Assembly: GCA_963779615.1 (NCBI GenBank)
Contig: CAVZZA010000004.1
Coordinates: 256,001 to 320,000, forward strand
Origin: an uncultured Nitrososphaeraceae archaeon
Lineage (GTDB): Archaea; Thermoproteota; Nitrososphaeria; Nitrososphaerales; Nitrososphaeraceae
Direction of reading: 5' to 3'
Length of the DNA stretch: 64,000 bases
This document shows, piece by piece, positions 7,114-31,565 of this stretch. The notes beneath the pieces are model-generated. The model searched no databases, was not told the DNA's origin, and saw only the letters and a list, made by a program, of their open reading frames with translations. The translations under genes and the position numbers were made by a program. Every line of letters begins with the position of its first letter. The stretch's first letter is position 1.

Positions 7114-7121
7114 ACGGCAGG

Positions 7122-9064: not shown

Positions 9065-9072
9065 GCGTCAGG

Positions 9073-11447: not shown

Positions 11448-11748
11448 ATGGCCAATGAAAATAAAAGGCCCTTGATTCCCTGATTTTTAACCCCTTTTTA
11501 TGACGCAGTTGAAGGCTCTATAACATCTGATGGTAGAATTACAATGACTTAGGTAAGATATGCAAAGCCGCATTCAAGCAAAACAATCAAACAATAAAAC
11601 ATGTAGGTTTCAGCATCACTAGCAGTCACTGCCAATATCAAGTATATGGATATCCCACTTCCAAGGATTCGAGGAATACATCAATCGCAGGGATGGTCAA
11701 TAAAAAAATATAAGCAATAACTTTACAGTTCCCATGTACATGCCAGAG

Positions 11749-11767
11749 TCGAAGCCCTCCGGGCCCG
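11749..11767 (+). other. att-like site 1: tRNA 3'-end fragment (T-loop to discriminator)
   Basis: TCGAAGCCCTCCGGGCCCG fits the end of an archaeal tRNA with a GGGCCCG acceptor stem (Lys/Arg type). It lies 55 nt upstream of the integrase. Confidence 0.7.
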
Positions 11768-11822
11768 TTACGATAATGGCTCTTTTAAATGGGTTCTACG
11801 AAAATAAGGTGTAAAGAATAAA

Positions 11823-12648
11823 GTGGTAGAAAACAATAATCAGGAACTGGACCCATGGTCACTGTATTTGTACGCGATGAAATCGCCAGTGACAAGGGAA
11901 AAGTACCAAAAGAGGCTCGAAAAGTTCTTTGACTTTGTGAATATAGAAGGAAAAACCGTGAAGGAGAAGAGCAGTGTTTTTGTTGATTTGGCAAGGAAAG
12001 AGGGCAATGGATGGATATTCAACCAGGTGTTAAGGTTTATGCAATTTCAACTGGAGCGCTTCAACAGAAAAGAGATTACGGGCTCAACAATAAGAAATTA
12101 CCTTAAGAGCATAAAGTTGTTTTGCGAGCTGGCTGATTTTTCCATTCCATGGAAAAAAATCACTAGGGGGCTACCCAAGGCAAAAAACTATTCAGACGAC
12201 CGTATACCAACAATAGATGAAATAAGGAAACTTTTGGAATATCCAGACAGAAGGTTGAAATCCATAATCATCACCATGGCTTCGTCAGGTATACGACTTG
12301 GTGCGTGGGAGTATTTGAGGTGGGGGAATATCAAACCGATAGAAAGAGAATGAAAGGTTGTTGCTGCCAAAATCATTGTTTATTCTGGAGAGGAGGAAGA
12401 GTACTTTTCCTTTATCTCCAAAGAAGCATTTCTTTCTCTGAAAGATTGGATGAACTATAGGGATTTTTCAGGAGAGTTGATAGACGAAAACAGCTGGGTA
12501 ATGCGACACTTGTGGGATACACAGGTTGCTCAAGGAAGGGGGTTTGTGACAAAGCCTAATAAACTTGCAACAATAGGAATAAAAAAACTAATCAACAGAG
12601 CAATATGGGCCTAGGGTTTGAGAAAGAAGTTAGAAAATAAAAAAAGAG
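11823..12648 (+). pseudogene. Tyrosine recombinase/integrase with nonsense codons, truncated
   Basis: DPWSLYLYAMKSPVTREKY, DRIPTIDEIRKL and MASSGIRLGAW (catalytic Arg). In-frame TGA at 12351 and TAG at 12611; similarity stops at RKKLENKKR, before the HxxR/Tyr region. Confidence 0.85.
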
Positions 12649-13017
12649 TATTATTAAATTGTGGAGGAAATTTTAAAGAAATTTATCCGATAGGCGATAG
12701 TTTGGTTTTACGATTTTACTGTACTCCTGATGATAAAATTGTAGAATTAAAATGCGTGAAAGTTATATTGAATAAGAAATCGAACGTCTGGTTCAACAAA
12801 TAGGCATATCTTTAGAAGAATTTAAAACTCTATGTAGAAAAGCAAGAAAACATCAATTCACGGTTAATTAAAGAATAGTTAAAATTTTACCACCCATTCT
12901 TGAACACCAAAAATAACACCCTAGAAGTGAACAGAACCTATTTTCAATTATTTACAATAAAATCAAAGTATGTTGACAACTAGATATATCCTGCTACCTA
13001 TAGAATCAATTTTAGTT

Positions 13018-13665
13018 ATGAATAAAAGAATTATCTATTCATTGGTTATAATCGTTATAGCAATATCATTATCTACTTTACTACCAAATTTCAATCCAAT
13101 ACAACAACCACCACTATATGCCGCAAGTCCCAATACTTCGGATTTGAAGCAGGACGTCAAACAAAACATGAATCAGGACAATCTCTGTAACAAACCTGAT
13201 GAATGCAACCAGGCTAGTGAAGGCCAACAAATACAGGGCAATGATAATTCAGCAGCTGGTTTTACTGACCAGAGCACAACCATTAGTCCAGGCAATACCA
13301 CTGGTTCAGCGCCATCGACTACAACTCAAGTGGCTCAGGGGCAGGCAGGGCCACAGGGAATTCCGGGACCGGCAGGGCCCCCTCGAACTGCTGTTGTGAC
13401 TGAAAGGGCAAGCACCGGAACAATCATTCTACCTGGCACAATAGGGTTTGCTGAGGCATCATGCAACCCTGGCGAAATATCTACGGGTGGGGGATACAGA
13501 TTTACACCTTCAGGTGTAGGGGTAACCCCTCCCTATGTTTCTGGCTCTAAAGCATTGACAGATATTTCGGGGAATAATTTGGGATGGGAAATTGATGCCT
13601 TCAACCCGGGTACATCTAATACGGATATTGTCGCATTTGCAGAATGCCTAAAGTTAGTGCCCTAG
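13018..13665 (+). CDS. Secreted protein with the family N-terminal Cys motif, short collagen-like G-X-Y stretch and C-terminal beta domain
   Basis: Signal peptide; QDNLCNKPDECNQASEGQQIQGNDNSAAGFTDQS; GQAGPQGIPGPAGPP; ASCNPGEISTGGGY. Confidence 0.8.
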   Translation: MNKRIIYSLVIIVIAISLSTLLPNFNPIQQPPLYAASPNTSDLKQDVKQNMNQDNLCNKPDECNQASEGQQIQGNDNSAAGFTDQSTTISPGNTTGSAPSTTTQVAQGQAGPQGIPGPAGPPRTAVVTERASTGTIILPGTIGFAEASCNPGEISTGGGYRFTPSGVGVTPPYVSGSKALTDISGNNLGWEIDAFNPGTSNTDIVAFAECLKLVP

Positions 13666-13744
13666 GAACAGAGGATTGCGAGAAAAATCCTTTTTTATTA
13701 AGCAAAGCAAAGAAAACCTTTGTTAAATCCATTTCATATAATTC

Positions 13745-13915
13745 TACTTGCCATAAAGTGGCCTTCCATAACTATACCCCTCAATGGTTTTCTGCTGTTT
13801 GGACCATTCCTTTACTGAAGGCTCATCGGCAGGTTTTCCCTTGGGCCCTCTTTTCACAATCGCAATCATGGCCATAACCTCAAAGCTGTATGGTATTTGT
13901 AAATCGGCCCTGTTT
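13745..13915 (-). pseudogene. Nitroreductase C-terminal remnant
   Basis: RADLQIPYSFEVMAMIAIVKRGPK...ENLP...RKPLRGIVMEGHF; paralogous to about 24990-25300. Confidence 0.6.
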
Positions 13916-13961
13916 TAGGATACACAACAATTCTGAAAAACATTTAACCTCTATTTTGGCT

Positions 13962-14531
13962 TCAGTGGTTTTTGTAGTATTTTCTTTTGGTTTCGTCCAG
14001 TTCCGTGTCGTAATACTTTTTTAAGTCGATTAGAGTGTCTATGTCGTACTCTAATTGGGCTTTCTCTTGCTTTAGATTTTTCATGTTTAGCGCCAAATCA
14101 ATAGCATGGTTCAAATCCTTCACCTTTATTTTGTTTCCGTCCAGAAAATCAAACAGTTTCAAATATGTCCCAAGGTTATTCCTGTTTTCCATCAAGACAC
14201 GAGACGCCATTCCCATGTTCCATAATAACAGGTAGTCAGAGCGGATTTTCAGTGCCTGGTCTGTTGTCAAATCAAGTTCAATGGCCACCTGGACAACGGG
14301 TTTGTCCTCCAGAAATAGCTTGAATGCCTGTGACGAAATGGACAAGGGTTTATTCTTTTGGTCACCTTGCTCCTGCTCTTCTTTAGCCTCGGCAGTAAGT
14401 TTCTGCCTGTTTTTCTTGACGATGGTGTTCGAGACATGGGCCATCTTTGAAATCTCCCTTGTTGTGTGACCTTTTTTCAGCAAGTCAATAACCATATTTT
14501 CTTTGTCTTTTGCGGATGGTACCGACATCAA
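13962..14531 (-). CDS. Double helix-turn-helix plus coiled-coil protein (paralog of 10842-11447)
   Basis: VIDLLKKGHTTREISKMAHVS and QAFKLFLEDKPVVQVAIELDL, followed by a coiled-coil tail. Confidence 0.75.
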   Translation of the reverse strand: MMSVPSAKDKENMVIDLLKKGHTTREISKMAHVSNTIVKKNRQKLTAEAKEEQEQGDQKNKPLSISSQAFKLFLEDKPVVQVAIELDLTTDQALKIRSDYLLLWNMGMASRVLMENRNNLGTYLKLFDFLDGNKIKVKDLNHAIDLALNMKNLKQEKAQLEYDIDTLIDLKKYYDTELDETKRKYYKNH

Positions 14532-15360
14532 CCGATATTGTTATCGGGTTTCTTTTAAGCAAATGAATTTTGATACCGTGATACAGCCTTTTCTTGGACG
14601 CTATCCCTGTTACCGCATTTTTCACCTGTTACATATGTCGTTTTTTATGTTGCTTTTTGGTGTGGGGCAACATATTGTCTAGCGGCATATTAAAGCAATA
14701 ACATATGCCAAAATTTTCCACCAAATACCGTTACGATTGTTGGCGGTGTTCCAACAAAGGTTGCTTATGAGTAAAGCCACAGTTTTCCTATTGCGTCAGA
14801 CACCAAGGCAGGGGCCAAATAGCGTGTCGGGTCATGGATGCCCGAGACAGGCCAAAAAGAACACGACAAGGTCCACTATTCACTCCTCAATAGATGTTCC
14901 ACCGATTTGCATGCAACCAAGCCGGAAAATCGCCCCCATTCCCATACCACCGGGCTTGAGTCCCGTAATCTCCATGAAAGTCTTCCTTTTCCCAGGGAGA
15001 TGGGATGACACAGTTGCCTACCACCACGCCTGCGCCGTTGTCATCCATGGATATCCTTTATTCTCTATCGCCACACTTCTTAGATCAACACTCCTGTGGT
15101 CGTTATCCTTTGCGTCATCCTCTTCGGCCTTTGTGTTGTCCCCTTGTCCGTAACGCATTCACCGCAGCCAAAAAGCGTCAATGTTGCCCCATAGCCCAAA
15201 CCAAGAGCCTTGTACCTAAATCATATAAATTTGGAGGGCTGCCCCCATCATGAAAGATAATGGAATGGGGACCCTATCTCCTAAGGATAAAACAAAAACG
15301 AAAAGCCCAAAAAAGGGGGTTTGAGAATAACTGGGAATTTTTCTCATCAAAGGCGACAGG

Positions 15361-16614
15361 TTAGGGGTCCAGGAAGAACACTTGGATTCTGTTGTTGAAA
15401 GTGTCTGCCACATACACGCTGCCCGTTGTCGAGTTCACGGCAACGCCTATTGGACCATCAAACCGGCCGTCTCCTGTTCCGAATGTCCCAAACTTTGTGA
15501 TGAAGATGCCGGTGCTGGCGTCAAACACCTGGATTCTGTCGTTGCCGGTGTCTGCCACGTACACGCTGCCGGTTGTCGGGTTCACGGCAACGCCTGTTGC
15601 AAAACTAAGTTGGCCGTCTCCTGAGCCGCCGGTTCCAAACTTTGTGATGAAGGTGCCGGTGCTGTCAAACACTTGGACGCGGCTGTTGGCCTGGTCTACA
15701 ACATACACGTTGCCCGTTACCGGGTTCACGGCAACGCCTACTGGACCAAGAAATTGGCCGTCGCCGGAGCCGCCTGACCCAAACTTTGTGATGAAGGTGC
15801 CGCTGGAGTCAAACACCTGGATTCTGTTGTTTTGGCTGTCTGCCACGTACACGCTGCCCGTCGAGGGGTTCACTGCAACGCCTGTTGGAAGTCTAAACTG
15901 GCCGTCGCCGTTGCCTATAGAGCCCCACTTGCCCAGAAACAGGTAATCCTTCGACACAAACTCGTTTGTGACGTTGCACTCCCTGCCTCCACCGACTGTT
16001 TTGATGGTGCCGCTACATCCCTCGGAAAAGTCTCACAGCCTTCAATGGCGACGACGCGCTGTCCTCAAAGTCCTCCGACACATTGTAATCGCCGAGATTG
16101 AGCGTGACGGTGGTGCCCTCCTCGGAGCCGGCAAACGAAGCTGGACTTGGGTTCCCGTTGCCCTAGGTTCCGGTGACACGCATCGTAAAGTCGGACGGTG
16201 GTGGGCATGAGAAGCCGTCAGGGCATGTGACGTTCTTTGTGACAAGGAGGGTGCCTGTTTGTTGAGGTGTTGAGGGTGGTAGATTGGACACACCAGCAGG
16301 CTGTGACTGCTGAACGTTTTTGCTTGGGTCATTGAATCCCTTTGCATCATTGTCTTTGCCCACTATCTGTTGACCTTGGTTGGCCTGTTCACAATCGTCG
16401 ACCCTGTAGCAGAGGTTGTCCTGGCCAAATGCTGGTTTGTGCTATCGGACTTGGAGTCTACATCTTTTCTAATGCTGCTCTTGTAGTCCTTGGTGATTTT
16501 GTAGTCACCATTGTCACCAGGCTCAGCGTTTGCTTGAACTGGGACCATATTCGGCCCCGTGACCAACAAGGACGCTAACGCGGACAATACCAACAGACAC
16601 TGTAAAATGTTCAT
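15361..16614 (-). CDS. Secreted NHL-repeat protein, copy 3 (four repeats), frameshifted
   Basis: MNILQCLLVLSALASLLVTG signal; GKDNDAKGFNDPS; VTKNVTCPDGFSC; four NHL repeats ending FFLDP. Confidence 0.85.
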
Positions 16615-16657
16615 ATATGAAAGACTGTCAAGTTTTCAGTTTATATGAAATAGGGTT
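16615..16657 (-). promoter_or_regulatory. Conserved promoter block of the secreted-protein family
   Basis: CCCTATTTCATATAAACTGAAAACTTGACAGTCTTTCATAT-ATG on the minus strand. Confidence 0.65.
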
Positions 16658-16949
16658 TTTAAAACTGCAATCTATTTTTGTGTTTATCGTCCTGCAAAAA
16701 CAGCATAACACTGACACAGAACATATCAAGGGAAATGTGTACTCTATTCATTCTTTGAGACTTGACAATTAAAGCGGCCCCAAAATAACTTTTGTCCATG
16801 GACAAGGACCTTGACAACTGCTGAGGTGGCCACCTGCCTTTACCAAGATGCAACCATGTTTGCAAAGCCTATACTCAGTCACAGGTTTTGATTGAAAGGT
16901 TATGTGGATTATGGGTTTGGCTATAGAGGCATGACCATGTAACAATACA

Positions 16950-19115
16950 CTAGGCAGCCCTTCCGTAGGCGTTGGTTATCGTGCATGTGGCTGATTGACC
17001 TCCATTATCTATCGTACCAGTGCAACCAGCAGAATATATCATTGTGAGGGGCACTATCACCGAGACGGTGCCATCAGCAAAGTTTGCCACGTACAGGAGC
17101 CCGTTGTCGGGGTTGAAGGCGACGCCGGATGGCTGGTTTCCCACGGGTATTGGGGTCCCTACGACGGTATTTGTTGCGCCGTCGATTACCGAGACACTGT
17201 CGCTGCCGGAGCTTGTCACATACAGGAGCCCGTTGTCTGGGTTGAAGGCAATATTGATTGGTTGAAAGCCCACTTGTATTGTGGCCACCACGGTGTTTGT
17301 CGATGGGTTTATCACCGAGACGGTCCTGCCGCCACTGTTTGCCACGTACATGAACCCGTTAGCGGGGTTGAAGGCAACACCATCTGGAAAACCGCCAACG
17401 GGTATTGTGGCCACCACGGTGTTTGTCGATGGGTTTATCGCCGAGACGCTCCCGTCATCCGCGTTTGCCACGTACAGGAGCCTGTTGGCGGGATTTAAGG
17501 CAATACCACCTGGAAAGTCACCCACGCGTATTGTGCCCACCACGGTGTTTGTCGAGGGGTTTATCGCCGAGACGGTGTTGCTAAGAACGTTTGTCACGTA
17601 CAGGAGCCTGTTGTCGGTGTTGAAGGCAATACCATCTGGTAGAGAGCCCACTTGTATTGTGGCCACCACGGTGTTTGTCGATGGGTTTATCACCGAGACG
17701 GTGTCGCTGACAGAGTTTGTCACGTACAGGAGCCTGTTGTCGGGGCTGAAGGCGACGCCCCGAGGACCAGAGCCCACGGGTATGGTGGCCACCACGGTGT
17801 TTGTCGATGGGTCTATTGCCGAGACGTTGTTGCTGCCAAAGTTTACCACGTACAGGAGCCTGTTGTCGGTGTTGACGGCTATACCAAGTGGTTGAAATCC
17901 CACGGGTATGGTGTCAATGACAAAACCTTGGGGTGCATCAGTCTCACTTACATTGTAGGTGACGGGGAAAGGAGGGTTTATCGTCAGGGGAGTGCCGCTC
18001 TCAGAGCCGCTGAAGGGAATGGAGGAGCCGTTGCCTGTGGTTGCCGTAATGGTGAATTTATCTGCCGTGGGGCAGGGAACAGCAGAAGAGGAATCAAAGT
18101 TGCACTCCACATTCTTGTTGACAGTCAGGGCACTTGTAATTAGTGTCGCTGTGTTGGTAATGGTGCATGTCAGGTCCTGGCCGGCGGTTATAGTGCCTGA
18201 GCAGTCCCCGGCGGTTGTGGTTTCAAACTCGACATCTTCAGAGGCTGGGGTGGTCTCCGTTATTTCGTAGGTGACGGGGAAAGGCGGGTTTATAGTCAGG
18301 GGTGTGCCGCTCTCAGAGCCGCTAAAGGTGTACGAGGAGCCGTTGCCTATGGTTGCGGTGATGTTGAAGTCGCCTGCAGTAGGGCAGGGAACAGCGGTAA
18401 AGTCACACTCCACATGCTTGGTTACGGCTAAGATACTGGTACGTAGTGTCGCTGTGTTGGTTATGGTGCATGTCAGGTCCTGGCCCGAGGTTATAGTGCC
18501 TGAGCAGTCACCTGTGGTTGTGGTTTCAAACTCAACGTCATCGGAGTCTGGGGTGGTCTCCGTTATTTCGTAGGTGACGGGAAAAGGCGGGTTTATAGTC
18601 AGGGGAGTGCCGCTCTCAGAGCCGCTGAAGGTGTACGAGGAACCGTTGCCTGTGGTTGCCGTAATGGTGAATTTATCTGCCGTGGGGCATGGGACCGCAG
18701 TAAAATCGCACTCCACGTGTTTGATTACGGTTATGGTGCTTGGTGGAGTGACGGGTGGAGTGACGGGTGGTGGAGTTGCTGATATGCCAAGGTTTTGCTG
18801 GTTTTCAATGCTTTTGCCTTGGTCATTCAAGCCTAAAGCTGCATTGTCCCTGCCCTTTATCTGCTGGCCTTCATTGGCCTGCTCGCAACCGTCACCCCAG
18901 TAGCAGAGGTTGTCCTGGCTCGAATGCTGGTTGGTTCTTTCTGACTTGGAGTCTATGTCTTTGTGTATGCTGTCCTTGTAGTCCTTGGTGGTTTTATGGT
19001 CGCCACTGTCGCCATCAGCTGCAGCGGCAAAAGATTGGACTGGAGAAAGGTTTGGCCCTGTGGCCATCAAAGATGTTAACGTGGATAACATCAGTAAACC
19101 CCATAAAATGTTCAT
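16950..19115 (-). CDS. Secreted YVTN-type 7-blade beta-propeller protein with three Ig-like repeats
   Basis: 721 aa: signal peptide, family Cys motif, three VxKxVEC...TCTITN repeats and seven TIPVGxxPxGxAFNxDNxLLYVxN repeats. Confidence 0.9.
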   Translation of the reverse strand: MNILWGLLMLSTLTSLMATGPNLSPVQSFAAAADGDSGDHKTTKDYKDSIHKDIDSKSERTNQHSSQDNLCYWGDGCEQANEGQQIKGRDNAALGLNDQGKSIENQQNLGISATPPPVTPPVTPPSTITVIKHVECDFTAVPCPTADKFTITATTGNGSSYTFSGSESGTPLTINPPFPVTYEITETTPDSDDVEFETTTTGDCSGTITSGQDLTCTITNTATLRTSILAVTKHVECDFTAVPCPTAGDFNITATIGNGSSYTFSGSESGTPLTINPPFPVTYEITETTPASEDVEFETTTAGDCSGTITAGQDLTCTITNTATLITSALTVNKNVECNFDSSSAVPCPTADKFTITATTGNGSSIPFSGSESGTPLTINPPFPVTYNVSETDAPQGFVIDTIPVGFQPLGIAVNTDNRLLYVVNFGSNNVSAIDPSTNTVVATIPVGSGPRGVAFSPDNRLLYVTNSVSDTVSVINPSTNTVVATIQVGSLPDGIAFNTDNRLLYVTNVLSNTVSAINPSTNTVVGTIRVGDFPGGIALNPANRLLYVANADDGSVSAINPSTNTVVATIPVGGFPDGVAFNPANGFMYVANSGGRTVSVINPSTNTVVATIQVGFQPINIAFNPDNGLLYVTSSGSDSVSVIDGATNTVVGTPIPVGNQPSGVAFNPDNGLLYVANFADGTVSVIVPLTMIYSAGCTGTIDNGGQSATCTITNAYGRAA

Positions 19116-19465
19116 ATGTGAAAGACTGTCAAGTTTTCAATTTATGAAATAGGGCATCATTAACTGCAATTTTCTTTTGCGTCTATCAACCTGTAAAAAT
19201 GAGGATAACACTCTCACTAAACATGACAAAGGAAATGTTTACGGTGTCTCTTCAATTTCTATGATGCCCCATTCAGCCGTCCTTGAGAACCATCAACCTC
19301 TTGGCAGCACCTTAAAACTGTCTTGCCTGCCGGCTCCTTTCCAAAATCATGGCATTAAATTCACCTATCCTTCTTGTGGGCTCCTCCACATCCCTCGCAG
19401 GATTGGACTTGAAAAAGTTTGGCCCGTCAATCTCATCATCTGCCGTTTTAAAGTTCGCAGTTTAG
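19116..19465. repeat. Dispersed repeat: promoter region plus 3' remnant of the HTH/coiled-coil gene
   Basis: Paralogous to 10645-10990; AAAGTTCGCAGTTTAG is shared with 10980-10995. Confidence 0.8.
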
Positions 19466-20478
19466 AGTTTTTAAAGGTGCAAGAAATCGACCATTATAAC
19501 CCATTGTTACAACCTAGATGTGATTACTACATATGTTGTTTTGTGTTGTTTTTGGTAGAGAATACTGCAAATGAAACGCAGGGGCACATTGAGTGATTTC
19601 TTGATGTGAAAACTATCAAATAAAAGGATTTACCACAATACTTCTTTATGCCTCATTTTCTTTTTCAGCCCGACCCAATTGATGAAGTGAAATTCATGCC
19701 CGTCAGGATAGACATACACAAAGGAGTTGCCAAGATAGTGGATGAGGAGATTCACCATGACTTTGAGACAAACAACACGTAGTGCGTGGTGATTGGAAAT
19801 GACAGGAAGGAAGTGCTTGCCACATTGCAGGATGGGTTTGCCAGCCAGTACAAAAGGTATGGCAAACTTGAGGAGAAGGGCATCCCAGTGATGGCTTAGG
19901 AGACAAGGCAGGCGTGGAAAAGGATACAGGGGCTTATTTTAAGGAAATAGGCAAAGAAGGCCTGTGCATGTTGCAAGCCCGATTCCGAAAGCACCCGAAT
20001 TGTTCAAAGATGCATGTTGGCCCTGAAAACAACCATACTTATAATGCCAATGGCAAAACAATAGGGGAGGAGAAGACACGCAATACATAGTTTGCAATGT
20101 CTTTATTTTGTCAGTAAAAACATACGGACTCTGGCTCGCTGCATAAAGAGGTTGTTTTTTAGAATTTTTCATGGTTGATTCTTTTTCAGATATGCTTAAG
20201 ACAGTAAAATCCATGCAGGAATCCCCATGTTTTCCACCCAACATGTTACTTCATATAATAACCATGTCAGTCATTAACCGGAATATGGTCTGCCTTTTCC
20301 CGGGCTTGGCAAGCAAAATTTATTCATGTAGTTAATCCAGGTAACTCAACCCGCTGAACGCCATGTTTTCGGGTCCGCCAATTCCGGCAATTGTCATAGG
20401 CTGGATTTTACCACAACGGCAAATATTGAAGAAACGGGGAAACTCCAATCAGAATCCGCAAGTTTGAACCAGTCAAAC

Positions 20479-21153: not shown

Positions 21154-21465
21154 ATATAGAATTCAGTAACTTTTTTAGACATATCTGGAGTAGGTCTTTT
21201 ATTACCTGACATTTAATCTGAATTTGTTAACCTGTAAAGATAAGCATAATCTTTACACTTTAAATTCATCGATAAATGTTTAGCATAAATTCAGTTTAAG
21301 GTTCGGGGTCTTCTTCATACTTACTTTATTGATAATGAATACCGTAGGGACTTGCATGATTTTGCACTCATGAAAAAAAGGAAATTGTATTTTATGCATT
21401 GAAAACTTTAAATCTATATCATCCATCTAGATAATAGAATCCATTTTAAAGGACCGATATCAGCA

Positions 21466-21483
21466 CGAAGCCCTCCGGGCCCG
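21466..21483 (+). other. att-like site 2: tRNA 3'-end fragment
   Basis: CGAAGCCCTCCGGGCCCG(TTA) is identical to site 1. Confidence 0.7.
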
Positions 21484-21690
21484 TTAACCATATGGGTTCA
21501 AATAATTTTGCATCTCTAACAACCATTGAAGGGAAAGGAAGGGGAGCAAACGACGCCTGCTAAGTTAACAGCAACCATCACAAATACATAGAGAAGAAGG
21601 TAAAGAATCAGGTTAACATACAACTGATAGGGGAATTCTTTTATTATTAGACCACCGATCGACACGTCAGAAAGATACCAAAATGGGCTG
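21484..21690. repeat. Right arm 'Y', about 200 bp; second copy at about 31169-31372
   Basis: Shares TTCAAATAATTTT, ACATAGAGAAGAAGGTAAAGAATCAG, ACATACAACTGATA and ATCGACACGTCAGAAA. Confidence 0.85.
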
Positions 21691-22623
21691 CTCAAGGTCG
21701 ATAAGACATACAGAATAGCCTTTTGGTCTTCCTTGGCCACTGAAAAACATGATGGTGCAGGGCGCTGCTGCCTCCCTTCAGCAATTTGTTGCCAACCGCA
21801 TGGTATTTCCCTCATCCGTGTTTCATGTACACCATAACCCTCACCATAACATCCCCACGCAAGTGCAAGAAGGTATTTCCCGGCTGCCTGGTCGGGTTCC
21901 GGATGACCGAGGCATGCGGAACCGGGGCAGCATGTGCCTCGGTCGCCAAAGCAAAAGTGGATGGATTTGACCCCTTCCCTTCCGTGAGCAGACACCCTTC
22001 ACGTACCCCAGGGTGAGGATGACCCGCTTTGGGGTTGCCCCATAACCATTGCTGGGGCCGAAAGGCAGGAGATGCCTCTATGCGGCACGGCATACCTTAC
22101 AAAATAAAGCAGAACCCAACCATTGTCAAGATGTTTATATATAAGTATAGGGGTGAAAGTTGTGTATTTTTATACACCGATGCCTGAGTAATTACCCATT
22201 ATGTATCTATAGCGTGAACTTATATAACGGAATACAGAGCACAGGGCAGGCATTTGCCAACCATTCGTTTGAGGATGGAAGGTTTTTCTGTTGTCACTCA
22301 CATAGCCACCTTCCCGGGGCTGGCACAGCATGTTTAGACCTGGTTCGAATACCCATCCATCACGGCGGCAGCATACATCATGACACCCTATCTTGGACCT
22401 GATACAGTTGTGGTTGTTAGACTGGTCTTTCTGCAATGCGCCATGTCGACGGTGCGGTGGCCACGTGCTTGTCGTACTGCCGCAAAAACTTGGGCAAGGC
22501 AAGCCCCCACTGGAAAGACAGTCTGCCTGCCTTCAATCAAGGTGACTGGCTCATGTCACTCCCTGGTGGTGAGCGTTATCGATAGCCCGGGCCAAATGCC
22601 CGCGGTCCCAAGGTCAAGGTCAC

Positions 22624-23391
22624 CTAAATCTGCGCCATGCCCCCATCTACGAACAGCTCAATACAGGTGATGAAACGGCTGTCGTCTGACGCGAGGAATG
22701 TGGCGGCTTTGGCTATTTCGTCGAGGCTTCCATCCGCCCCATAGGCATGGCGGACAAAAGGCCCTCCCTGAATTGCTCCTTCTGCTCGTCAGTCTCCAGC
22801 AGCAGACCATCGAAGCCTGGCGTGTCTATCGGGCCGGGACTGATGGCGTTGACGCGGATCCTGCGCTGCTTCAGATCAACCGTCCAGGTGCGAGCGAAAG
22901 AGCGCACGGCCGCCTTGGTTGCGTTGTAGACACCAAACCCTCCAACCCCCTTGGATGCGGCCACCGAGGCATTCAAAATGATGGAACCGCCGCCACCGTC
23001 GCCCCCACCCTGAAACAGCGGAAGCGCCTTTTGCACGGTGAACAAAAGCCCTTTGGCGTTGATGCCGAATGCTTTGTCAAAGTGGGCTTCCGGAGGTTTC
23101 CCCCAGTGTTGCCAATTCCCCAATGCCGGCGTTGGCGAACAGGATGTCCATGTGGCCCCTCTTCTCCCTCACAGTGGCACACAGCCTGTCAAGGTCCGCA
23201 AGGTTTGAGACGTCCCCCTGGACACCGGTGATGCCTTTGCCTATTCGCCTGACTGCCGCATCAATCTCGCCCTGGCGGCGGCCTGTGATGAAGACATGGG
23301 CGCCCTCATCCACAAACCGCTGGGCCGCGGCAAGGCCTATGCCGCTGGTTCCGCCTGTGATGATTACGACTTTCCCTTCCAGCCTTTTCAT
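22624..23391 (-). CDS. Short-chain dehydrogenase/reductase (SDR), frameshifted
   Basis: [38 protein letters not shown]; ends ELFVDG(G)MAQI*. Confidence 0.85.
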
Positions 23392-24032
23392 GGTATCCTA
23401 ATCGTGACGGCAGGCTTTAAGTTTGCAAAAATGAGTGAAGATGCTTTTGCTGCTGCACACACTGAGGACACCTACGAGCAGGAGGCAGACCTAATCCATT
23501 GCGAAACGATACAAGGGTCTATCACATCCATAACGCGAATGCCCCTTCGGTGGGATGGTACACAGTGTCAGATGAGGCGACCGGTCAGGTCCAAGAAGAG
23601 CATGAGCAATTACATGCCAGTCACCTGCATACCCCTGATACGGGACAAATTGCAGTGGCACAGCCTATAGGCCACAAGGCAATAGCCCACCCGACCAACT
23701 GCATAAACAGGACATGGGAAAAGGTACTTGAAAAGATTGTAAAAACTCCCCTTTAGTATGACAGTATGAGGTCGTGCATAGTGAATTTGTCCATTAATGT
23801 ATGCCTTGTAGACAAAAACGAATAGAATATGGATATTGACAAAAAAAATGCGAGAGACAAAATATTATCAATGTCATACTTTAATATTAAAAAAGTATGC
23901 ATATATTATTTATAGAAACATATACACAGAATAATACTTTTGAGGTTTTGATTGTCTTAAAGCTTGCTAAGGGATATTTCATCCATCTTTGAAATGACAT
24001 TATCAATGAATATGAAAAAATTGTTGATTCCA

Positions 24033-24716
24033 TTAACGTAAGTTTACTATTATCCAGTATATACCATAAAGTCCAAATATCATGCTCAAAATCAAAATCA
24101 ACATTTTATAATATTTTGATTTTAATATCGATATTCCTTTAAAGACAAGGTAAGAAATCAGAGTTAGCCAAGCATAGTCCATCCATATATGAAAGGAGAA
24201 AAGAGATGCTGTTCCCGATAAAATACCAAAAGAAGAAACTGAATCAGATATAAGCTTTAGACCAACTGTTAGCCACCAAGCCAAAAAGAAAGGGTTTAAG
24301 GCACTAAATATGATGCCTGATATGACTGGTCGATTTCTGTTATTGTAACTAACTTTCTGAATCTCTTTTTTATTGTTGTTGTTTAATTTTATGGCCACAT
24401 CCTTTCCTTTAATAATGTCTTTAACCTGTAGGATGGAAAACGCAACTATGGCAATACCACCAACTATTCCAATAATCTTTAGATTTCCAACACTTGTAAA
24501 GCCAGTATAGGGAATTTGAGACATACCTACAGCCAACAATATGACTAAAGGCAGTTCAACAATAGTGTGCCCAAATGCAATTTTAATCCCTGAACGAAAT
24601 CCTTCTTTACTGCCGTATATAAGATTTGCAAAGAATAATGGACCTGGTGATAGTACACCAGATAAGGATACAAGAATTACTTCTCCTGCAAATTCAAGCA
24701 TATTCATGCTTGGCAC
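24033..24716 (-). CDS. LysE family translocator
   Basis: SGVLSPGPLF, GHTIVELP and LNPFFLAWW motifs. Confidence 0.85.
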   Translation of the reverse strand: MPSMNMLEFAGEVILVSLSGVLSPGPLFFANLIYGSKEGFRSGIKIAFGHTIVELPLVILLAVGMSQIPYTGFTSVGNLKIIGIVGGIAIVAFSILQVKDIIKGKDVAIKLNNNNKKEIQKVSYNNRNRPVISGIIFSALNPFFLAWWLTVGLKLISDSVSSFGILSGTASLFSFHIWMDYAWLTLISYLVFKGISILKSKYYKMLILILSMIFGLYGIYWIIVNLR

Positions 24717-24989
24717 TTATAGAATATGCGATTCCTTGGTCCTTTTATATGTATATATCTATAACTATCTAATCCTGGAAAACGTAACCATAATATGCGA
24801 TTATATTATTGCCAAAGAAACTGAAATCAAGATAAATAACTCTACGAAAGAAGGCACAATAAAAATAATTACATTGCCGTCAATCTATTGCCACAACAGA
24901 AACACTTTTAAACAAATGACAAAGCAAAATACCCTTGATTACCTCAACAATTAAGAAAACATATAAGTAAAGACCATACCCAGAGATGA

Positions 24990-25300
24990 ATTCCATTTTC
25001 CTGTAAAGCAGCCCTCCATAACTATTTCCCCAAATGGTTTGTGCCGTTAGGGCCCCTTTTCCTGCAGGTTTTCCTTTGATCCACTTTTCACAATCGCAAT
25101 CATGGTCATAACGTCAAACCTGTTCGGAATACCAAAGTCGGCCCTTGCCATTTCATAGTCAAATCTCTGCATACATTAGGCCGCCAATCCCCCTGATGAT
25201 GCCTCCAAGGCCAGTTCTTCCCAAGTTGCCAAGTGTCATACTGGTGCGTTTTGAAGTTGGATTAACAACAACTAGTTTTCATCTTTTGTGTAATTTTATA
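24990..25300 (-). pseudogene. Nitroreductase remnant
   Basis: WEELALEASS...MQRFDYEMARADFGIPNRFDVMTMIAIVK...KPFGEIVMEG. Boundaries are approximate. Confidence 0.6.
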
Positions 25301-25637
25301 CGGGCATCAAATAACAGTTTTTGAAATCAAAAGGTATTTTTGAATAAGAACTATTTCATGGGTGTGGGAAAGAAAAAGCTGTCAAAGATGAAGAAAAGGG
25401 ACTGCCGAAAAAGCATGACATGGATTTTCAGCACTTTAATGATATACACGATTAACTTTCTTTGCCTAAAGCACAAAAACGAGTTTGTTGTGATAAAGAA
25501 CCGGTAAGACTACAGCAACAGGGACCCATTAAAACTGTTGGAAATTTTGAGTGAAAACAACATCGACCCTGGAAATGGTGATAGAATTTATGATACAGGT
25601 AACCCAAATCTTCTTGCAGAAGAAGTATTAAGCGGAT

Positions 25638-26186
25638 ATTCAACAACATGCCCTTTTGATGTCGCCCAGGTTGTCCAGCAGATAGTCCCTCTCCTCTTTT
25701 ATTGATTGGATCTTCTCCTTCCGTTTGCTCTTTCGCTGTTCGTGCCTCTACGTTGATTATGCTGTCCGTTGCGTTTCTGATATCCTTGGCTCTGGTGATG
25801 TTTATTTTTATCTCTTCAAACTTTACAAACGTGGCCAAATGGTGCTTATTCTACTTTAGGATTGTGGCTGCTTTATGCATCTTCTGCAGCCTCAAAAAAT
25901 CATACAGTGTGCTCATTACCCTGTCAGTTTCCAAATCCAAATCAATGGCTACCTGAACCGGGATCCTGCCTACCAAAAACAGTTCAAACGCCTGGCATGG
26001 TATGGACTTTGCTTTTTTTCCTTTTTCTGAGCATTCATCCTTCTTACCCTCCCTGGTCACCTTTCCCCTTATCATCTTGATGTCGGAGAAGGATACATGC
26101 GCCTGCTTGGCGATTTGTGGAAACCTAACGCCTTGGTTCAGCAAGTCTATGACCAAGTTGTCTTTTTGTTGCCTGTTTAGAATCAT
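25638..26186 (-). pseudogene. Double-HTH/coiled-coil gene with an in-frame TAG at 25851
   Basis: LVIDLLNQGVRFPQIAKQAHVSFSDI and QAFELFLVGRIPVQVAIDLDL; the reading frame continues past the stop. Confidence 0.7.
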
Positions 26187-26402
26187 CGTTACATGTGATA
26201 TTGATATGCCAGTTAGTTTTTAAAGATGCAAGAAATCGCCCATTATTACCATTGTTACAAAAACCAAAGCATTGTTACATGACTTGTTTTGTATGTTGTT
26301 TTTGATGAAGAGTAACACTTATTTTTAAATATATACACAAAGCAATTATTTGTTGAATTTTTTCTTTTTTTTAAAAGGTCTTTAATAAAAAAAATCTAAA
26401 TA

Positions 26403-27428
26403 ATGGAGGCTTATATAGATTTTATGATATACTTAAAGGTAGTTTTTTGTGCTTTATGTCTATTTTTTATTTTATATACTCCATTGATAACTTTTGGACA
26501 ACAGGATAACTCAACAATTGCAAACAACCCTACAACTAACACCAGCAACTCATTCGATCTGAGTGGATTGTATATCTCTGACAACCAAGATAAATATTTT
26601 CTAAGACAAGTTGGAAATTCCTTATGGTGGATTGGAACAGATAAGGATGGTTCACATGTCATAAATATTTTCAAAGGGATTAAGGATGGAAATATTATAA
26701 CAGGACAATGGATTGATTCACCACTGGGAAAAAAAATGGGTTACGGCTCATTGAACTTAATTTTGTTAGCCAATTCAACTGAAAATGTAACATTGGTAAA
26801 AGTCCCTTCTAAAGATAAATTTCCGATAAACCAACTGATAAAATTTAATCCTGAAACTCAAGTTATTCCAAAATTTATGGTTATGTTAAATGGTGTAAAT
26901 GTGGACATCCCAAGATCACCAATCCGTGACGTATTGTATGTTGGTTTAGGCGTGAAGGAAGATAGTAATACTCCATTAACCGCAACTAGGTATCTAGCAA
27001 ACAGCGATGGAAGTTCTAACATTACTTTAGACTTAAAGCTAGGACCATTTGAGCTTGACAAAAAAGATGATGGTCTTGCCATTGTGTTTATGGGGGTGAA
27101 TAAGGAAGACTCGAGAACTACTCCAATACTAATTAGTTTAGGAGAAACACTAGTCCAACTATTTGACCCCTCATTTGATTTCTACAGCCTATCTAACATG
27201 TATCAAACAAATCTGCTAATGCGTTCATTATCTCCTGGATTACTGTCTGGCGGATGCAACGGACTTGTTTTTGCAGACAAAATATTTTTACCATTTGAGG
27301 ATTTGAAAAAATCTATATCTAACGGCATTTATTCTCAAGAAAAATCCTATCTTGGGACAGAATCGCCCCCAGGATGTGGCCCGAATTCGAAATATCAAGT
27401 AAAATGGTCAGTTGTTCCAGTAGAATAA
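26403..27428 (+). CDS. Hypothetical secreted protein
   Basis: 341 aa with a hydrophobic N-terminus and a Cys pair near the C-terminus; no family recognised. Confidence 0.7.
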   Translation: MEAYIDFMIYLKVVFCALCLFFILYTPLITFGQQDNSTIANNPTTNTSNSFDLSGLYISDNQDKYFLRQVGNSLWWIGTDKDGSHVINIFKGIKDGNIITGQWIDSPLGKKMGYGSLNLILLANSTENVTLVKVPSKDKFPINQLIKFNPETQVIPKFMVMLNGVNVDIPRSPIRDVLYVGLGVKEDSNTPLTATRYLANSDGSSNITLDLKLGPFELDKKDDGLAIVFMGVNKEDSRTTPILISLGETLVQLFDPSFDFYSLSNMYQTNLLMRSLSPGLLSGGCNGLVFADKIFLPFEDLKKSISNGIYSQEKSYLGTESPPGCGPNSKYQVKWSVVPVE

Positions 27429-27598
27429 TGATGACTATCCGAATTATTTTCCTTTTGTGTTACTGGTTTTCTAATCCAATCCACAAATAAAGATAGTTTT
27501 GGGGCTACTCAAATAATATTTTTATAAAACAATCATCTCTAAAGACATTTGAGTAGATAGATTCGTCCTAAAAATAAATTATTATAAAGGCGTCTTGG

Positions 27599-27661
27599 GC
27601 GAAGTTGGCTTAGTCTGGTTGAGGAACAATAAGGGATCGCAGATTCAAAACCGAACTTCTC
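27599..27661 (+). pseudogene. Possible degenerate tRNA remnant
   Basis: GAAGTT...AACTTC ends can pair; TGGCTTAGTCTGGTTGAG is D-arm-like and GCAGATTCAAAACC is T-loop-like; no proper anticodon arm. Confidence 0.3.
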
Positions 27662-27830
27662 TTTAAACAACAATAAAAGATGGTTTTTTGACTCTAGGCG
27701 CATTTATCGCAATAGGCTAAAGTTTTAAACTTGTTGCTATATATTCAATAGGTACGTTCTACCAAAATACTTCAATTTAAAAACACCACTTCTAAAATCA
27801 AAGAATCCATTTATAGGACCGATATCAGCA

Positions 27831-27848
27831 CCAAGCCCTCCAAGCCAG
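27831..27848 (+). other. att-like site 3 (degenerate)
   Basis: CCAAGCCCTCCAAGCCAG, preceded by the same left arm as site 2 (GAATCCATTT..AGGACCGATATCAGCAC). Confidence 0.55.
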
Positions 27849-28097
27849 TATGTATTCTAGTAACATTATTGGACAGCAGATACAAATGTCTCAAAGTTAC
27901 AATATTGATCTGATGCTACTTCTGTTGTTTTTTTAGGATAGGATTGTTATTTATATGTTTTATCTATACCATACAGGATAAGTAAAATTTCGAAAAAAAA
28001 GAGGTATACTCTCTTGCTCTTCTTCCTTACCAGTCACAAAAGACGATGTGTTAATATCCATATCGTATGTCTGTTAATTATCTCCCTTAGCTGTTGA

Positions 28098-28400
28098 TTA
28101 TGTAACATATCGGTATCTTATCGCACTATCCATTGTGCCATTGCATCCTTCCGAAAAATTAGTTGGGAGGGGTGCTATCACATATACAGCGTTACCATTG
28201 CTGTTTGTCATATGCAAGTTCCCACGGTATATGTTAAAAGCAATGCCTATGGGAAATGATCCCATATATATGGTGCTGTGACAGCGATTGTTCAATGGTC
28301 GATTACAGATACGGGGTTGCTAACTTGTTTGCTACATAGGTAAATCCATTATTTGAATTAGAATCAATCTCTTGGTCCGGCTCCCACTGATGATGCATGA
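28098..28400 (-). pseudogene. Remnant of a YVTN propeller protein C-terminus
   Basis: GSFPIGIAFN...MTNSNGNAVYVIAPLPTNFSEGCNGTMD resembles the end of 16950-19115. Confidence 0.6.
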
Positions 28401-28703
28401 TTACAGGGGCTAAAGTTTCATTTTTGACGAAGGATTGGTTTACGGACTGGCGTACTACTTTAGAATAGGATATAGTTATCCATCAGGATTTTCATGTGGC
28501 TTATGTCAAACACATTAGGTTTTTCTTTGGGTCAAGAGCGCAAGCAGGAGCCACTTATTAATGAATCCTAATTTAAATCCGGAATGTGGATCATCATAAA
28601 TTATGGACTCTTTTTGCGCAGTGTTTGATTGCTACCCAATAAAGAACTATTAACTAAGATAAATACAAAATAGAATATTATCTTTTGGTATTATTTATTG
28701 AAA

Positions 28704-29180
28704 TTAATAGTCAACAACAGTTGTCATATTTAGCAAATCAGACATTATCGCGTGTGTACCTATAATGGCCCCATCAATTATATCTGAATTGTTGTATCCG
28801 GCTATCTTCAAACAAACTTCACAAATTATTACATTTCCCCCATTATCCATAAAATTTGTTACATTGTTTGTTAATGGATTTAGGCCTAAGTATTGGTGTG
28901 GATGCTTAACACCTAGTTGCACACCTTCAATGCTTAACATTAATGTGACATTATACCCGCTATTTAGCATGGTTTGAGAGTCCAATAGGGCTATAGTAGC
29001 TCTCCAAGGTTCATCACTGCTAAGGTGATACACTAACTTTGTCTCACTACCACTTGCGGTTTTAAGGGATTCTGAATACGCCTGGTGCAATTTAGGATTA
29101 TTTGCAAACATAATCGAAAAGCAAAAAGCAAAAATAATTAACATATAAATTACCTTTATTTTGGTTTTCATTTTATTCAT
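28704..29180 (-). CDS. DsrE-family protein with an N-terminal signal or anchor
   Basis: VTLMLSIEGV and GGNVIICEVCLKIAG are typical of the DsrE/F-like fold. Confidence 0.7.
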   Translation of the reverse strand: MNKMKTKIKVIYMLIIFAFCFSIMFANNPKLHQAYSESLKTASGSETKLVYHLSSDEPWRATIALLDSQTMLNSGYNVTLMLSIEGVQLGVKHPHQYLGLNPLTNNVTNFMDNGGNVIICEVCLKIAGYNNSDIIDGAIIGTHAIMSDLLNMTTVVDY

Positions 29181-30023
29181 ATCCCAATTTTGGATTATTT
29201 AAGAATTTATTTGGAATTTGTCATTTAATAAAAATCAAGGGTGAAGGCTTTTAAATTAAGGAAAGCGGGAGATATCCCAAAGATACTTTCTGTTTTCTTT
29301 ATTTGCTCACGAAACGGGAAACAACATCTACACAATATGATTAGACCCGTCAAATCTTGAATTATGGATTAAGGTAATCCCCTTTGTTTTTAATAATAAT
29401 GCACATAGCATGATAGGCAGAAATTTGAGAATAAGATAACATTGTATCTAGAGTAAATCTATCATTCCATCCATCTTTGTATATAATATAGGGATTCAAA
29501 AGTTAAAATAACAAATATTATGTAATAATTACAAAAAAAATATATTTTTGTGTATATCTTTTCTGTATAGATACCAGTGGAGATAGCTTTCAGAATACCA
29601 AGGATTTAAGTAATGGTATAGATGGTTAAGCACTGAACCAAAGGATTCTAAATAAAAGATAGAAAAAGATATCTAACCTGTTAAGCAGGTCACATGGCCT
29701 TTTAAAGATGTCATAAAAGCACCTTTATCGGCCTTTAATTCTACAGGCACGCACATGAGTCATTTTTTAACGGTGAAAATGAGTCGGAAGCATGGGCCCG
29801 ATAATCCTGTATGTTTTTTTAGTTCCATTCATAAATTATACTATAAAACATGCAGCAGCAGCCTACCTCTCAAACCCCGCAACAACTTGAACACAAGATT
29901 GGCCCTCAAAATCCACATTTTCTGTTTAGATTCCACCAGACCCCCAGAAACCAAAAAAAAGATACTCACAAATTCAGGCATTTCTTGTTCATGCCTGTAC
30001 ATAAAAACGTATAGAAAAGTAGA

Positions 30024-31043
30024 ATGAATGACATGAGTGAGAAATACTTTCAACTGGCTCCTGATTTGGCAATATGCAGAATAGTCAACGGCATGTGGCA
30101 AGTTGCAGGTGGACATGGACAGATTGATCGCGAGTTGGCAGTAGAAGACATGATGCGATATCATGATGCTGGCTTTACCAGTTGGGACCTAGCCGATATT
30201 TATGGCCCGGCAGAGGATTTTGTCGGGCAGTTCAGGCGTAAGCTATTGGCGCTAAAAGGAAAAGAAGAACTCGACAGAATTCAGGCATTAACAAAATGGG
30301 TGCCACAGCCAGGAAGGATTACCCCTTCCTTCGTTAATGAAAATATAGAAAGATCACGTCGCAGGATGGGTGTTAGCTCGCTGGATTTACTTCAATTCCA
30401 CTGGTGGGATTACACCAACTCGCAATACATGGATGCCCTCAAATACCTATCCGACTTGCAGGATAAAGGGATAATCAAGCACTTGGGCCTTACAAATTTT
30501 GATACCGACCGAATGCAGATCATGATAGATTCAGGAATAAAAATTGTATCAAACCAGGTTCAATATTCAATCATAGATCGCAGACCAGAGGTAAAGTTGG
30601 CACCATTTTGCCTGAAACACAACATAAGCCTCCTTGCGTATGGAAGCATCTGTGGAGGGCTTTTGTCAGAGCGCTATCTGGGAAGAATGCAGGAACCACC
30701 TTCTGCTGAGTTAAGCACACTAAGCTTGCGAAAGTACAAGCGAATGGTAGATGCATGGGGCGGATGGAATTTGTTCCAAGGTCTTTTATCGGCTTTGGAT
30801 GTAATTGCACAAAAGTACAATGTGAGCATTGCAAATGTGGCAACCAGGTATATTCTTGACAAGCCTGCAGTAGCAGGTGTTATCATAGGTGCCAGACTTG
30901 GAATAGTTGATCACATAAGCAATAACGCGCAGGTGTTCAACCTTAGTTTGGACAAGTCAGATTGCGAAGTCATAGATTCTGCATGCACAAGGTCGAACAA
31001 CCTGTTTGAGATAATTGGGGATTGTGGTGATGAGTACAGATGA
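30024..31043 (+). CDS. Aldo/keto reductase
   Basis: GMWQ, WDLADIYGPAE, LDLLQFHWW, HLGLTNFD and NQVQYSIIDRRP. Confidence 0.9.
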   Translation: MNDMSEKYFQLAPDLAICRIVNGMWQVAGGHGQIDRELAVEDMMRYHDAGFTSWDLADIYGPAEDFVGQFRRKLLALKGKEELDRIQALTKWVPQPGRITPSFVNENIERSRRRMGVSSLDLLQFHWWDYTNSQYMDALKYLSDLQDKGIIKHLGLTNFDTDRMQIMIDSGIKIVSNQVQYSIIDRRPEVKLAPFCLKHNISLLAYGSICGGLLSERYLGRMQEPPSAELSTLSLRKYKRMVDAWGGWNLFQGLLSALDVIAQKYNVSIANVATRYILDKPAVAGVIIGARLGIVDHISNNAQVFNLSLDKSDCEVIDSACTRSNNLFEIIGDCGDEYR

Positions 31044-31149
31044 TCTTTTCCCCACTGTACCTTTATTTTAAAAAAAATACTATCCAATACCCAAATCAGA
31101 AAAAAAGGATTTGGCAAAGAAGCTGTCCGTTCCCTCCTACATGCCAGAG

Positions 31150-31168
31150 TCGAAGCCCCACTTGCCCG
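31150..31168 (+). other. att-like site 4 (degenerate)
   Basis: TCGAAGCCCCACTTGCCCG, with the left arm of site 1 (GTTCCC...TACATGCCAGAG) and the right arm of site 2. Confidence 0.6.
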
Positions 31169-31565
31169 CTAATTATATGGTTTCAAATAATTTTTAATTT
31201 CCAATGACCATAGAAAGGAAGGGGGAGGGTACAGATTATTGTCTAAAGTCACAACAATCATCACAAACATAGAGAAGAAGGTAAAGAATCAGCCAAGCAC
31301 ATACAACTGATATAACAATTCTTTCATTATCCGACCTACACCATCGACACGTCAGAAAAATATCGAAATGTTCCTATAGTTAAGCACTAAATGGCATCTG
31401 GAATGAACTTCGCCTCAATCAGGACGAATGCATCCAAAACACCCAGACCTTGGTTAACAACGATCATAAACTATTCAGGCAGGCAAGCAGGCAGGCAGGC
31501 TGCCAAGGGTATAGACCACATATTAAGGATGGAAATTTATTATCTGCACTTATATCTCCTAAAAC

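Follow-up and report, generated by a model that had tools for sequence, protein, structure and literature searches.

How did several copies of one short, tRNA-like sequence, each with different neighbours, come to lie in a single orientation on one archaeal chromosome? The question is raised by a stretch of 64,000 nucleotides from the genome of an uncultured Nitrososphaeraceae archaeon (contig CAVZZA010000004.1, written C4 below; C4:256001-320000, hereafter the window), whose assembly comprises 3.17 Mb in 5 contigs and is 92.5% complete. A sequence-only reading of the window had proposed an integron-like array of stacked integrative elements growing from a tRNA gene to its left. The analysis described here indicates that the region is very probably a tandem array of cryptic integrated elements, generated by tyrosine-recombinase integration into the 3' end of the tRNA-Arg(TCT) gene.

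The repeated sequence is an 18-nucleotide core, CGAAGCCCTCCGGGCCCG, which occurs exactly on the plus strand at 11750-11767 and 21466-21483 (chance expectation in the window, 0.01) and in degenerate form, with 4 mismatches out of 18 in each case, at 27831-27848 and 31151-31168. These four sites, with start-to-start spacings of 9716, 6365 and 3320 bp, were found as the sequence-only reading had described them. A third exact copy is located at C4:252014-252031, 3.97 kb to the left of the window, where it forms the 3' end of a tRNA-Arg(TCT) gene (C4:251943-252031, window -4057 to -3969); this gene was detected with a 14-nucleotide intron by ARAGORN with intron search and was scored at 42.5 bits by the Rfam model RF00005. 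The core is identical to the last 18 nucleotides of the gene, which is the plus-strand tRNA, ending in the core, that had been predicted to lie upstream. Among the 38 tRNAs found in the genome by ARAGORN with introns, it was the sole copy of tRNA-Arg(TCT) detected. With intron search switched off, ARAGORN reported no tRNA either within the window or at any exact copy of the core.

A sixth junction, absent from the earlier list, was identified at 29785-29800, where a variant core lies behind a fourth type of arm, D (arms being the conserved sequences that flank the cores). The array therefore holds three exact cores, including the tRNA end, and three degenerate or variant ones, all in the same orientation, and the direct repeats flanking the elements correspond at one end to the 3' end of an intact tRNA gene. 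Moving outward from the tRNA, the mismatches number 0, 0, 0, 4, variant (29785) and 4, so that the left-to-right decay noticed before was borne out. The degenerate cores are not chance matches, because each of them sits behind a significant arm match.

The partner of similarity changes at every core. Arm A precedes and the start of an integrase gene, int2, follows the core at 11750, arms B and Y flank the core at 21466, arm B and unique DNA the core at 27831, and arm A and arm Y the core at 31151, the last two cores having 4 mismatches; arms A, B and the arm Y of about 200 bp, together with their four pairings, were thus read at all four sites as previously claimed. Of these partners, those on the right are the beginnings of two divergent genes for tyrosine recombinases, Y-int and int2, arm Y being the promoter region and first codons of the Y-int gene, and those on the left (arms A, B and D) are short conserved ends of elements. 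Arm B at 27802-27841 is 93% identical to 21436-21476 over 41 nucleotides, and an exact 21-mer comprising arm A and the start of the core is common to 11737-11757 and 31138-31158. With regard to arm Y, 31175-31358 matches the tRNA-adjacent copy at 85% over 108 nucleotides, and the copy at 21484, termed Y', is 88% identical to it. Perfect palindromes of 10 bp were observed a few bases before the core, namely CATGTACATG in arm A (11733-11742) and CCGATATCGG in other copies of arm B (e.g., at the C5:519116 junction); these could be binding sites for the recombinase or an accessory protein.

Since arm Y directly follows the tRNA, a fifth segment, E0, of 15.7 kb, lies on the left of those recognised before. 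The claim of an array growing from a tRNA to the left of the window hence stood as regards the tRNA, and was extended by this segment between the tRNA and core 1. The features are, from left to right and in window coordinates:

-4057 to -3969, plus strand: tRNA-Arg(TCT) gene with core 0.
From just 3' of the tRNA (3969 bp left of the window) to core 1: E0, 15,718 bp in all, the part in the window being 1-11727. Its left end, outside the window, carries a Y-type integrase gene with one frameshift; its G+C-rich cargo encodes a pyridine-nucleotide disulphide oxidoreductase, an SBF-family transporter, DyP fragments, a DUF4331 protein and NHL-repeat proteins.
10842-11447, minus strand: HTH gene of E0.
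11728-11749, plus strand: arm A, the right end of E0, with its palindrome.
11750-11767, plus strand: core 1, identical to the last 18 nucleotides of tRNA-Arg(TCT).
11768-12647, plus strand: int2 left arm and pseudogene (gene at 11823).
11768-21465, 9,698 bp: E1, composed of the int2 pseudogene, an HTH gene, NHL/propeller proteins, a right-end module and arm B.
12648-20478: E1 cargo, with a membrane-like open reading frame (ORF) of 231 residues, the HTH gene (13962-14531, minus strand) and proteins with NHL/beta-propeller repeats, in part fragmented.
20479-21465: conserved right-end module of E1, with a gene of 224 codons (minus strand) and arm B (21436-21465).
21466-21483, plus strand: core 2, identical to the tRNA end.
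21484-21715, plus strand: arm Y', made up of the promoter region and some 55 codons from a Y-type integrase gene that has lost its start codon and contains an in-frame stop.
21484-27830, 6,347 bp: E2, composed of the Y' stub, a dead G+C-rich block, LysE, further ORFs, an HTH gene and arm B.
21716-23863: the G+C-rich non-coding block of E2, with a frameshifted short-chain dehydrogenase pseudogene (22627-23334, minus strand).
23864-27801: rest of E2, with a LysE-family exporter (24033-24716, minus strand), an ORF of 128 residues, the HTH gene (25851-26186, minus strand) and an ORF of 341 residues.
27802-27848, plus strand: arm B (27802-27830) and core 3 (27831-27848, 4/18 mismatches).
27849-29771, 1.9 kb: E3a, with a DsrE-like ORF (28704-29180, minus strand) and no integrase.
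29772-29800, plus strand: arm D (29772-29784) and variant core 3b (29785-29800).
29801-31128, plus strand: E3b, an aldo/keto reductase module of 1.35 kb with its arm A, containing one gene.
31129-31168, plus strand: arm A (31129-31150) and core 4 (31151-31168, 4/18 mismatches).
31169-31370, plus strand: arm Y remnant, a stub of about 200 bp from the left end of another element, of which the rest and the right att site are missing.
31566-32873, plus strand: HtrA-like serine protease gene, whose membership of the island is uncertain.

Up to six segments are stacked at one tRNA. A search of E0 and E1 for additional cores or arms yielded only a match at 945, within a gene, that is likely due to chance. 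The interpretation of core-to-core segments as integrated elements held, and their type could be specified as that of tyrosine recombinases, but the segment of 3.3 kb proved to be two units, E3a and E3b, divided by core 3b. The integrase attributed to the segment of 9.7 kb is dead, and the segment of 6.3 kb, which had been described as lacking one, keeps about 55 codons of Y-int; neither segment has an intact integrase. E2, E3a and E3b are units between cores without an intact integrase, and their outer cores are degenerate.

We scanned the genome with the 14-nucleotide end of the core, allowing up to 2 mismatches, and classed the hits by eye. Of 24 core-like hits, four were in called tRNA genes, one was tRNA-like by eye and three had no arms; about 16 were junctions, in which arm A, B, C or D preceded the core and Y, int2 or other sequence followed it. 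Arm D with a core like 3b was present at three other places, and the right-end module of E1 showed about 75-76% identity to three other loci, one of these alignments crossing the core into arm Y. Within 7.6 kb at C5:512886-520547 (minus strand), five of the junctions from the scan are clustered, their arms being B and C. ARAGORN found no tRNA near this cluster, which may be another array whose tRNA was missed or has been lost. A tRNA-like sequence that ARAGORN did not call was also seen at C5:869777-869794 (minus strand), by eye a tRNA-Arg(CCT) ending in ...CAAATCCCTCCGGGCCCG.

With regard to the two integrases, every copy in the array is broken. The tRNA-adjacent Y-int was recovered by tblastn with the intact protein as two pieces in different frames, and therefore carries one frameshift. 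In the int2 copy at 11823, the reading frame is interrupted by a stop after 176 codons, and similarity ends at residue 275 of 421, before the C-terminal third, while the Y copy at 21484 keeps about 55 codons, with no start codon and one stop. No other intact Y-int gene was found in the 92.5% complete assembly. An intact Y-int of 432 residues is present in a same-genus relative, G010, and an intact int2 paralogue of 421 residues lies beside tRNA-Arg(GCG) in the genome under study. The array is, in this respect, a fossil today.

The intact int2 matched the NCBIfam model XerA with an E-value of 1.2e-12 and Pfam Phage_integrase with 7.5e-6 (26.3 bits, against a cut-off of 27.1). Sequence matches of Y-int were weak (Pfam Phage_integrase, E 0.0024; NCBIfam XerA, E 4.7e-5). 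The family to which it belongs is a large one, for which 1732 of 5187 candidate proteins reached E<=1e-5; its members are called integrase or XerD-like in the sources, and the named ones come from Candidatus Nitrosocosmicus and Nitrososphaeraceae. Searching solved structures by sequence with Y-int and int2 gave nothing useful. A structural model of Y-int was built from 26 family members (mean pLDDT 70.7, pTM 0.45), and all 9 PDB matches that Foldseek returned for it at E<=0.001 were tyrosine recombinases, namely Cre and its Tre variant, archaeal Xer/XerA and the integrase of mycobacteriophage Brujita; lambda integrase and XerH followed at weaker E-values. Foldseek probability was 1.00 and TM-scores were low (0.24-0.39), as expected for a two-domain protein modelled without DNA. 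The catalytic pattern of tyrosine recombinases consists of Arg, His-x-x-Arg and Tyr. Columns R179, K207, R298-H299, W320 and Y330 were invariant among the 26 members, a set that seems to fit this general pattern. Y-int is, by its predicted fold, a tyrosine recombinase.

The start codons of the integrase genes lie about 55-70 nucleotides downstream of the core, and integration would therefore leave the gene unsplit. Some archaeal integrase genes stay whole on integration, as opposed to the split genes of SSV1 type. Those described here are like the former in having the core about 55-70 nucleotides upstream of the start codon and a gene that is intact after integration; they differ from them in that their sequences are very divergent, with Pfam Phage_integrase scores below the curated cut-off.

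The comparison with relatives was consistent with integration at this site. The tRNA-Arg(TCT) gene and its upstream genes are conserved across the genus, and we read by eye the flank 3' of it in 16 same-genus genomes, which represent different species and not strains. This flank was occupied by an int2 arm in six, by a Y arm in two and by another integrase, of 438 residues, in one, with other sequence in the remaining seven, so that both occupied and unoccupied states of the site are present among these species. G011 contains an array of its own, in which the tRNA is followed by an element running from Y-int to arm B, a core with 4 mismatches, a segment running from a Y stub to arm B, a more degenerate core and an int2 element; its cores decay outward with the same gradient as those of the window array. 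G010 has an element of 30.2 kb with intact Y-int and arm A next to the tRNA, followed by a core with 1 mismatch and an int2 arm, an order equal to that of the window array. Beyond the integrase region and the junction of arm A, core and int2, no similarity was found between the G010 and window arrays, and their cargo differs.

Where the comparison was possible, breakpoints relative to these genomes coincided with the cores, as the sequence-only reading had supposed they should. In a genus-wide search with 10700-14800, 21 alignments began exactly at the base before core 1, and 10 further ones, from 6 genomes, began 18-48 nucleotides earlier and therefore contain arm A joined to the int2 arm. 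A search of 33 same-genus genomes with 23900-31150 gave no match crossing core 3; homologues of the genes on either side of it were found on different contigs or far apart, and homologues of E3a were far from those of the aldo/keto reductase. The reductase module itself was 81-85% identical to five same-genus genomes, a similarity confined to about 29803-31150 and ending at 29803-29808 on the left and at the core, 31151, on the right, with flanks that were unlike on both sides. Its left boundary was marked by a degenerate core-like sequence in each genome, and about four flank combinations were observed across the six genomes, whose flanking host genes were 69-76% identical, as compared to 81-85% for the module.

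On the right of the array, the sequence that adjoins asnB in relatives resumes by about 33167. The HtrA-like gene is not beside asnB in relatives and may therefore still be island cargo; a paralogue of it with 83% identity is located at C3:403586-404915. The block of asnB, HAD and MPG synthase genes lies hundreds of kb from tRNA-Arg(TCT) in two single-contig relatives. The ancestral right flank of the tRNA was not identified by synteny, the tRNA-downstream regions of six relatives mapping to scattered places in the genome under study.

The following mechanism could account for the array. An incoming circular element would recombine its attP with a chromosomal core, the attP consisting of the right-end arm, a core of about 18-22 nucleotides identical to the tRNA end, and the left arm with the promoter and start of the integrase gene. 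The core used most often would be the tRNA-proximal one, kept intact by selection on the tRNA, and each integration would restore the tRNA and push older elements and core copies outward, where the cores would decay. Both Y-int and int2 use the tRNA-Arg(TCT) site, and the segments without an integrase are decayed elements of the kind called cis-mobilisable elements (CIMEs) in bacteria. What we infer are the order in which the elements integrated, the preferential use of the proximal core and the function of the arms as recombinase-binding sites.

Several observations weigh against integration in successive steps at this tRNA. The arms are not sorted by integrase, as Y-int elements end in arm B in G011 and in arm A here and in G010, and E1 pairs int2 with arm B; some segments may therefore be chimeras that arose through homologous recombination or a deletion. 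At its right end, the array shows neither a final core nor a native tRNA trailer that could be recognised, and no right att site (up to 5 mismatches out of 20) was present within 44 kb for the intact int2 element at tRNA-Arg(GCG). Among the ORFs compared with Pfam, none could be recognised as a replication, conjugation or virion gene. We also looked for excision in four metagenome runs with short contigs, the best two of which cover 0.19 and 0.17 of the sampled words, and no excision product, empty site or circular junction was seen in them. One metagenome contig spanned core 4 without any difference, and a single joint at a core had letters identical to the flank of the paralogous junction C5:519116 and hence came from the paralogous locus. 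The nearest genomes that could be compared were no more than about 76% identical at the DNA level in the flanking genes. Finally, core 4 has derived bases (ACTTG for TCCGG) in common with the copies of relatives, so the core 4 junction must have been decayed when it was inherited or imported, its decay not having taken place here following a local integration.

This last observation bears on the best-surviving alternative, which we regard as rather unlikely, namely that the array was mostly not built stepwise in this lineage, being inherited or imported as an accreted composite whose cores had decayed before its arrival. The order of tRNA, Y-int element with arm A, core and int2 element is common to G010, five other same-genus genomes contain the reductase module together with arm A and a core in which the same derived bases are found, and transfer of whole composites has been described for bacterial tandems (PMC5704250). 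However, the Y-elements of G010 and the window share the integrase and arm A alone, differ in length (30.2 versus 15.7 kb) and encode integrases of about 75% protein identity. Furthermore, related copies differ by at least 12% from the flanks of cores 1 and 2, whereas these cores have remained exact, and many different occupants were found at the same tRNA in relatives.

A second alternative, in which cores and arms stem from segmental duplication and homologous recombination among paralogous families (NHL-repeat, HTH) and not from site-specific integration, is improbable. NHL-repeat and HTH paralogues are indeed common to E0 and E1 over about 1-2 kb, and the mixed pairing of arms and integrases fits recombination between neighbours. 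Yet similarity breaks abruptly at the core, with single-base resolution, at many junctions both here and in relatives; the core is a tRNA 3' end, and core variants track the local tRNA, as illustrated by the CAT bases near tRNA-Arg(TCG). Least credible of all is an integron-like platform, a comparison that had been suggested, in which one resident recombinase would capture promoter-poor cassettes at a fixed site and stack them by age. The array is not an integron, for although the sites share one orientation, the cores decay with distance from the tRNA and at least one single-gene module of 1.35 kb without a recombinase sits between two cores, there is no intI-attI-Pc platform and no integrase gene elsewhere than in the segments, the array begins with a tRNA gene whose end is copied directly in the sites, both integrases match XerA-type models weakly, and the segments (6-16 kb), most of them multi-gene with up to a dozen genes on both strands, have integrase genes or remnants of two families at their own left ends.

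Within the preferred reading of an array integrated at tRNA-Arg(TCT), mobilisation in trans of the integrase-less segments, which had been put forward earlier, is plausible. In addition, we tentatively consider that miniature modules lacking an integrase may exist in the genus and be carried in trans between tRNA-derived cores by Y-int or int2, a possibility to which we give somewhat less than even weight; among archaea, such modules would correspond to gene cassettes or miniature integrative elements. One candidate is the 1.35-kb reductase module, which lies between degenerate cores and has a leader of its own at its left end and arm A at its right. In the window, the reductase gene (Pfam Aldo_ket_red, E 1.3e-65) is split into two overlapping ORFs, 29755-30027 and 30024-31043; this copy may be frameshifted near its 5' end, relatives suggesting one longer gene that starts near 29843.

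The other candidate is the Y' derivative, in which the Y arm is fused to the dead dehydrogenase block, with one breakpoint, six cores and two left arms. Arm Y' is joined to the block at the same breakpoint in seven copies in this genome (7 of 12 aligned sequences), of which six have a core, lying behind arm B in four cases and arm C in two. One copy is located 5 kb from tRNA-Arg(TCG), and its core has the CAT bases of that tRNA. Only the copy in the window (E2) has recognisable sites on both sides. This pattern fits the spread of a putative integrase-less derivative by site-specific recombination.

The block of about 2.2 kb that follows Y' is present in about 10 copies in this genome (C5:831055-833483, C3:440029-441186, C1:186954-188268, C1:633460-634668, C4:94051-95444 and others). 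In relatives, weak matches were found in 4 of 30, and those examined were intact short-chain dehydrogenase genes. The copy of the dehydrogenase in the window is frameshifted according to tblastn, and two copies of the block that were compared showed no codon periodicity and had indels that were not multiples of three. The G+C-rich block after Y' is dead cargo. A structured RNA or group II intron was considered for it and rejected, as Rfam gave nothing at the gathering threshold or at E<=1. One apparently intact paralogue was observed at C3:196681-197376.

Other parts of the cargo also differ in composition from the genome, whose G+C content is 36.3%, compared to 47-56% in the E0 cargo and parts of E1 and E2. 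The HTH family, which gave weak HTH_23 and GerE matches in Pfam, has roughly 30 copies in the genome, with one each in E0, E1 and E2, all on the minus strand; it could be a regulator or a directionality factor. Paralogues encoding secreted NHL/beta-propeller proteins were noted at 9000-10964, 15344-16742, 17000-19434 and 20851-21061. These genes, common to E0 and E1, contain internal tandem repeats of 126 and 144 nucleotides, and several are fragmented.

Most of these properties are in line with what has been described for Thaumarchaeota, in which integrated elements mostly target tRNA 3' ends, intron-bearing genes included, att sites have a median of 17 bp, most elements are cryptic integrated elements, and tyrosine-recombinase elements are known to build arrays by re-using one site (Krupovic et al. 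2019, PMC6563490). The elements reported there and those of the window are alike in their insertion by a tyrosine recombinase at tRNA 3' ends, including intron-bearing ones, and in their size of a few to tens of kb; in both, the cargo is for the most part metabolic or unknown, and genes for replication or transfer could not be recognised. The att sites are 18-22 bp here as compared to that median of 17 bp, and the array differs in having up to six segments at one tRNA, with all integrases dead (PMC6563490). The word Nitrosocosmicus is absent from the main text of PMC6563490, and in a literature search on Nitrosocosmicus integrases at tRNAs, none of the papers listed described such arrays, judged by titles and the openings of abstracts.

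A parallel is also offered by streptococcal ICEs (integrative and conjugative elements) and IMEs (integrative and mobilisable elements), which integrate, decay to a CIME that keeps its att sites and are followed by a new element at the intact site (PMC5704250). Tandem accretion of this kind resembles the situation described here in integration at the end of a target gene, loss of the integrase with att sites kept, and new integration leading to a tandem (PMC5704250). The streptococcal systems are bacterial, linked to conjugation and shown experimentally, whereas the present array is archaeal, has no transfer genes that could be seen and was read from sequence (PMC5704250). The region is, on the evidence of its letters, a clear archaeal example of such a process of decay followed by accretion, and insertion of successive elements at one tRNA end is a well-known route to the growth of genomic islands.

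For this genus of soil ammonia oxidisers, the array marks tRNA-Arg genes with a GGGCCCG acceptor end as a recombination hotspot used by two divergent integrase families, and a sizeable share of the genome's foreign G+C-rich DNA arrived through such sites. The cores and arms A to D are ready markers for delimiting islands in these genomes. What would go beyond the routine is solely the possible existence of small cassettes mobilised in trans.

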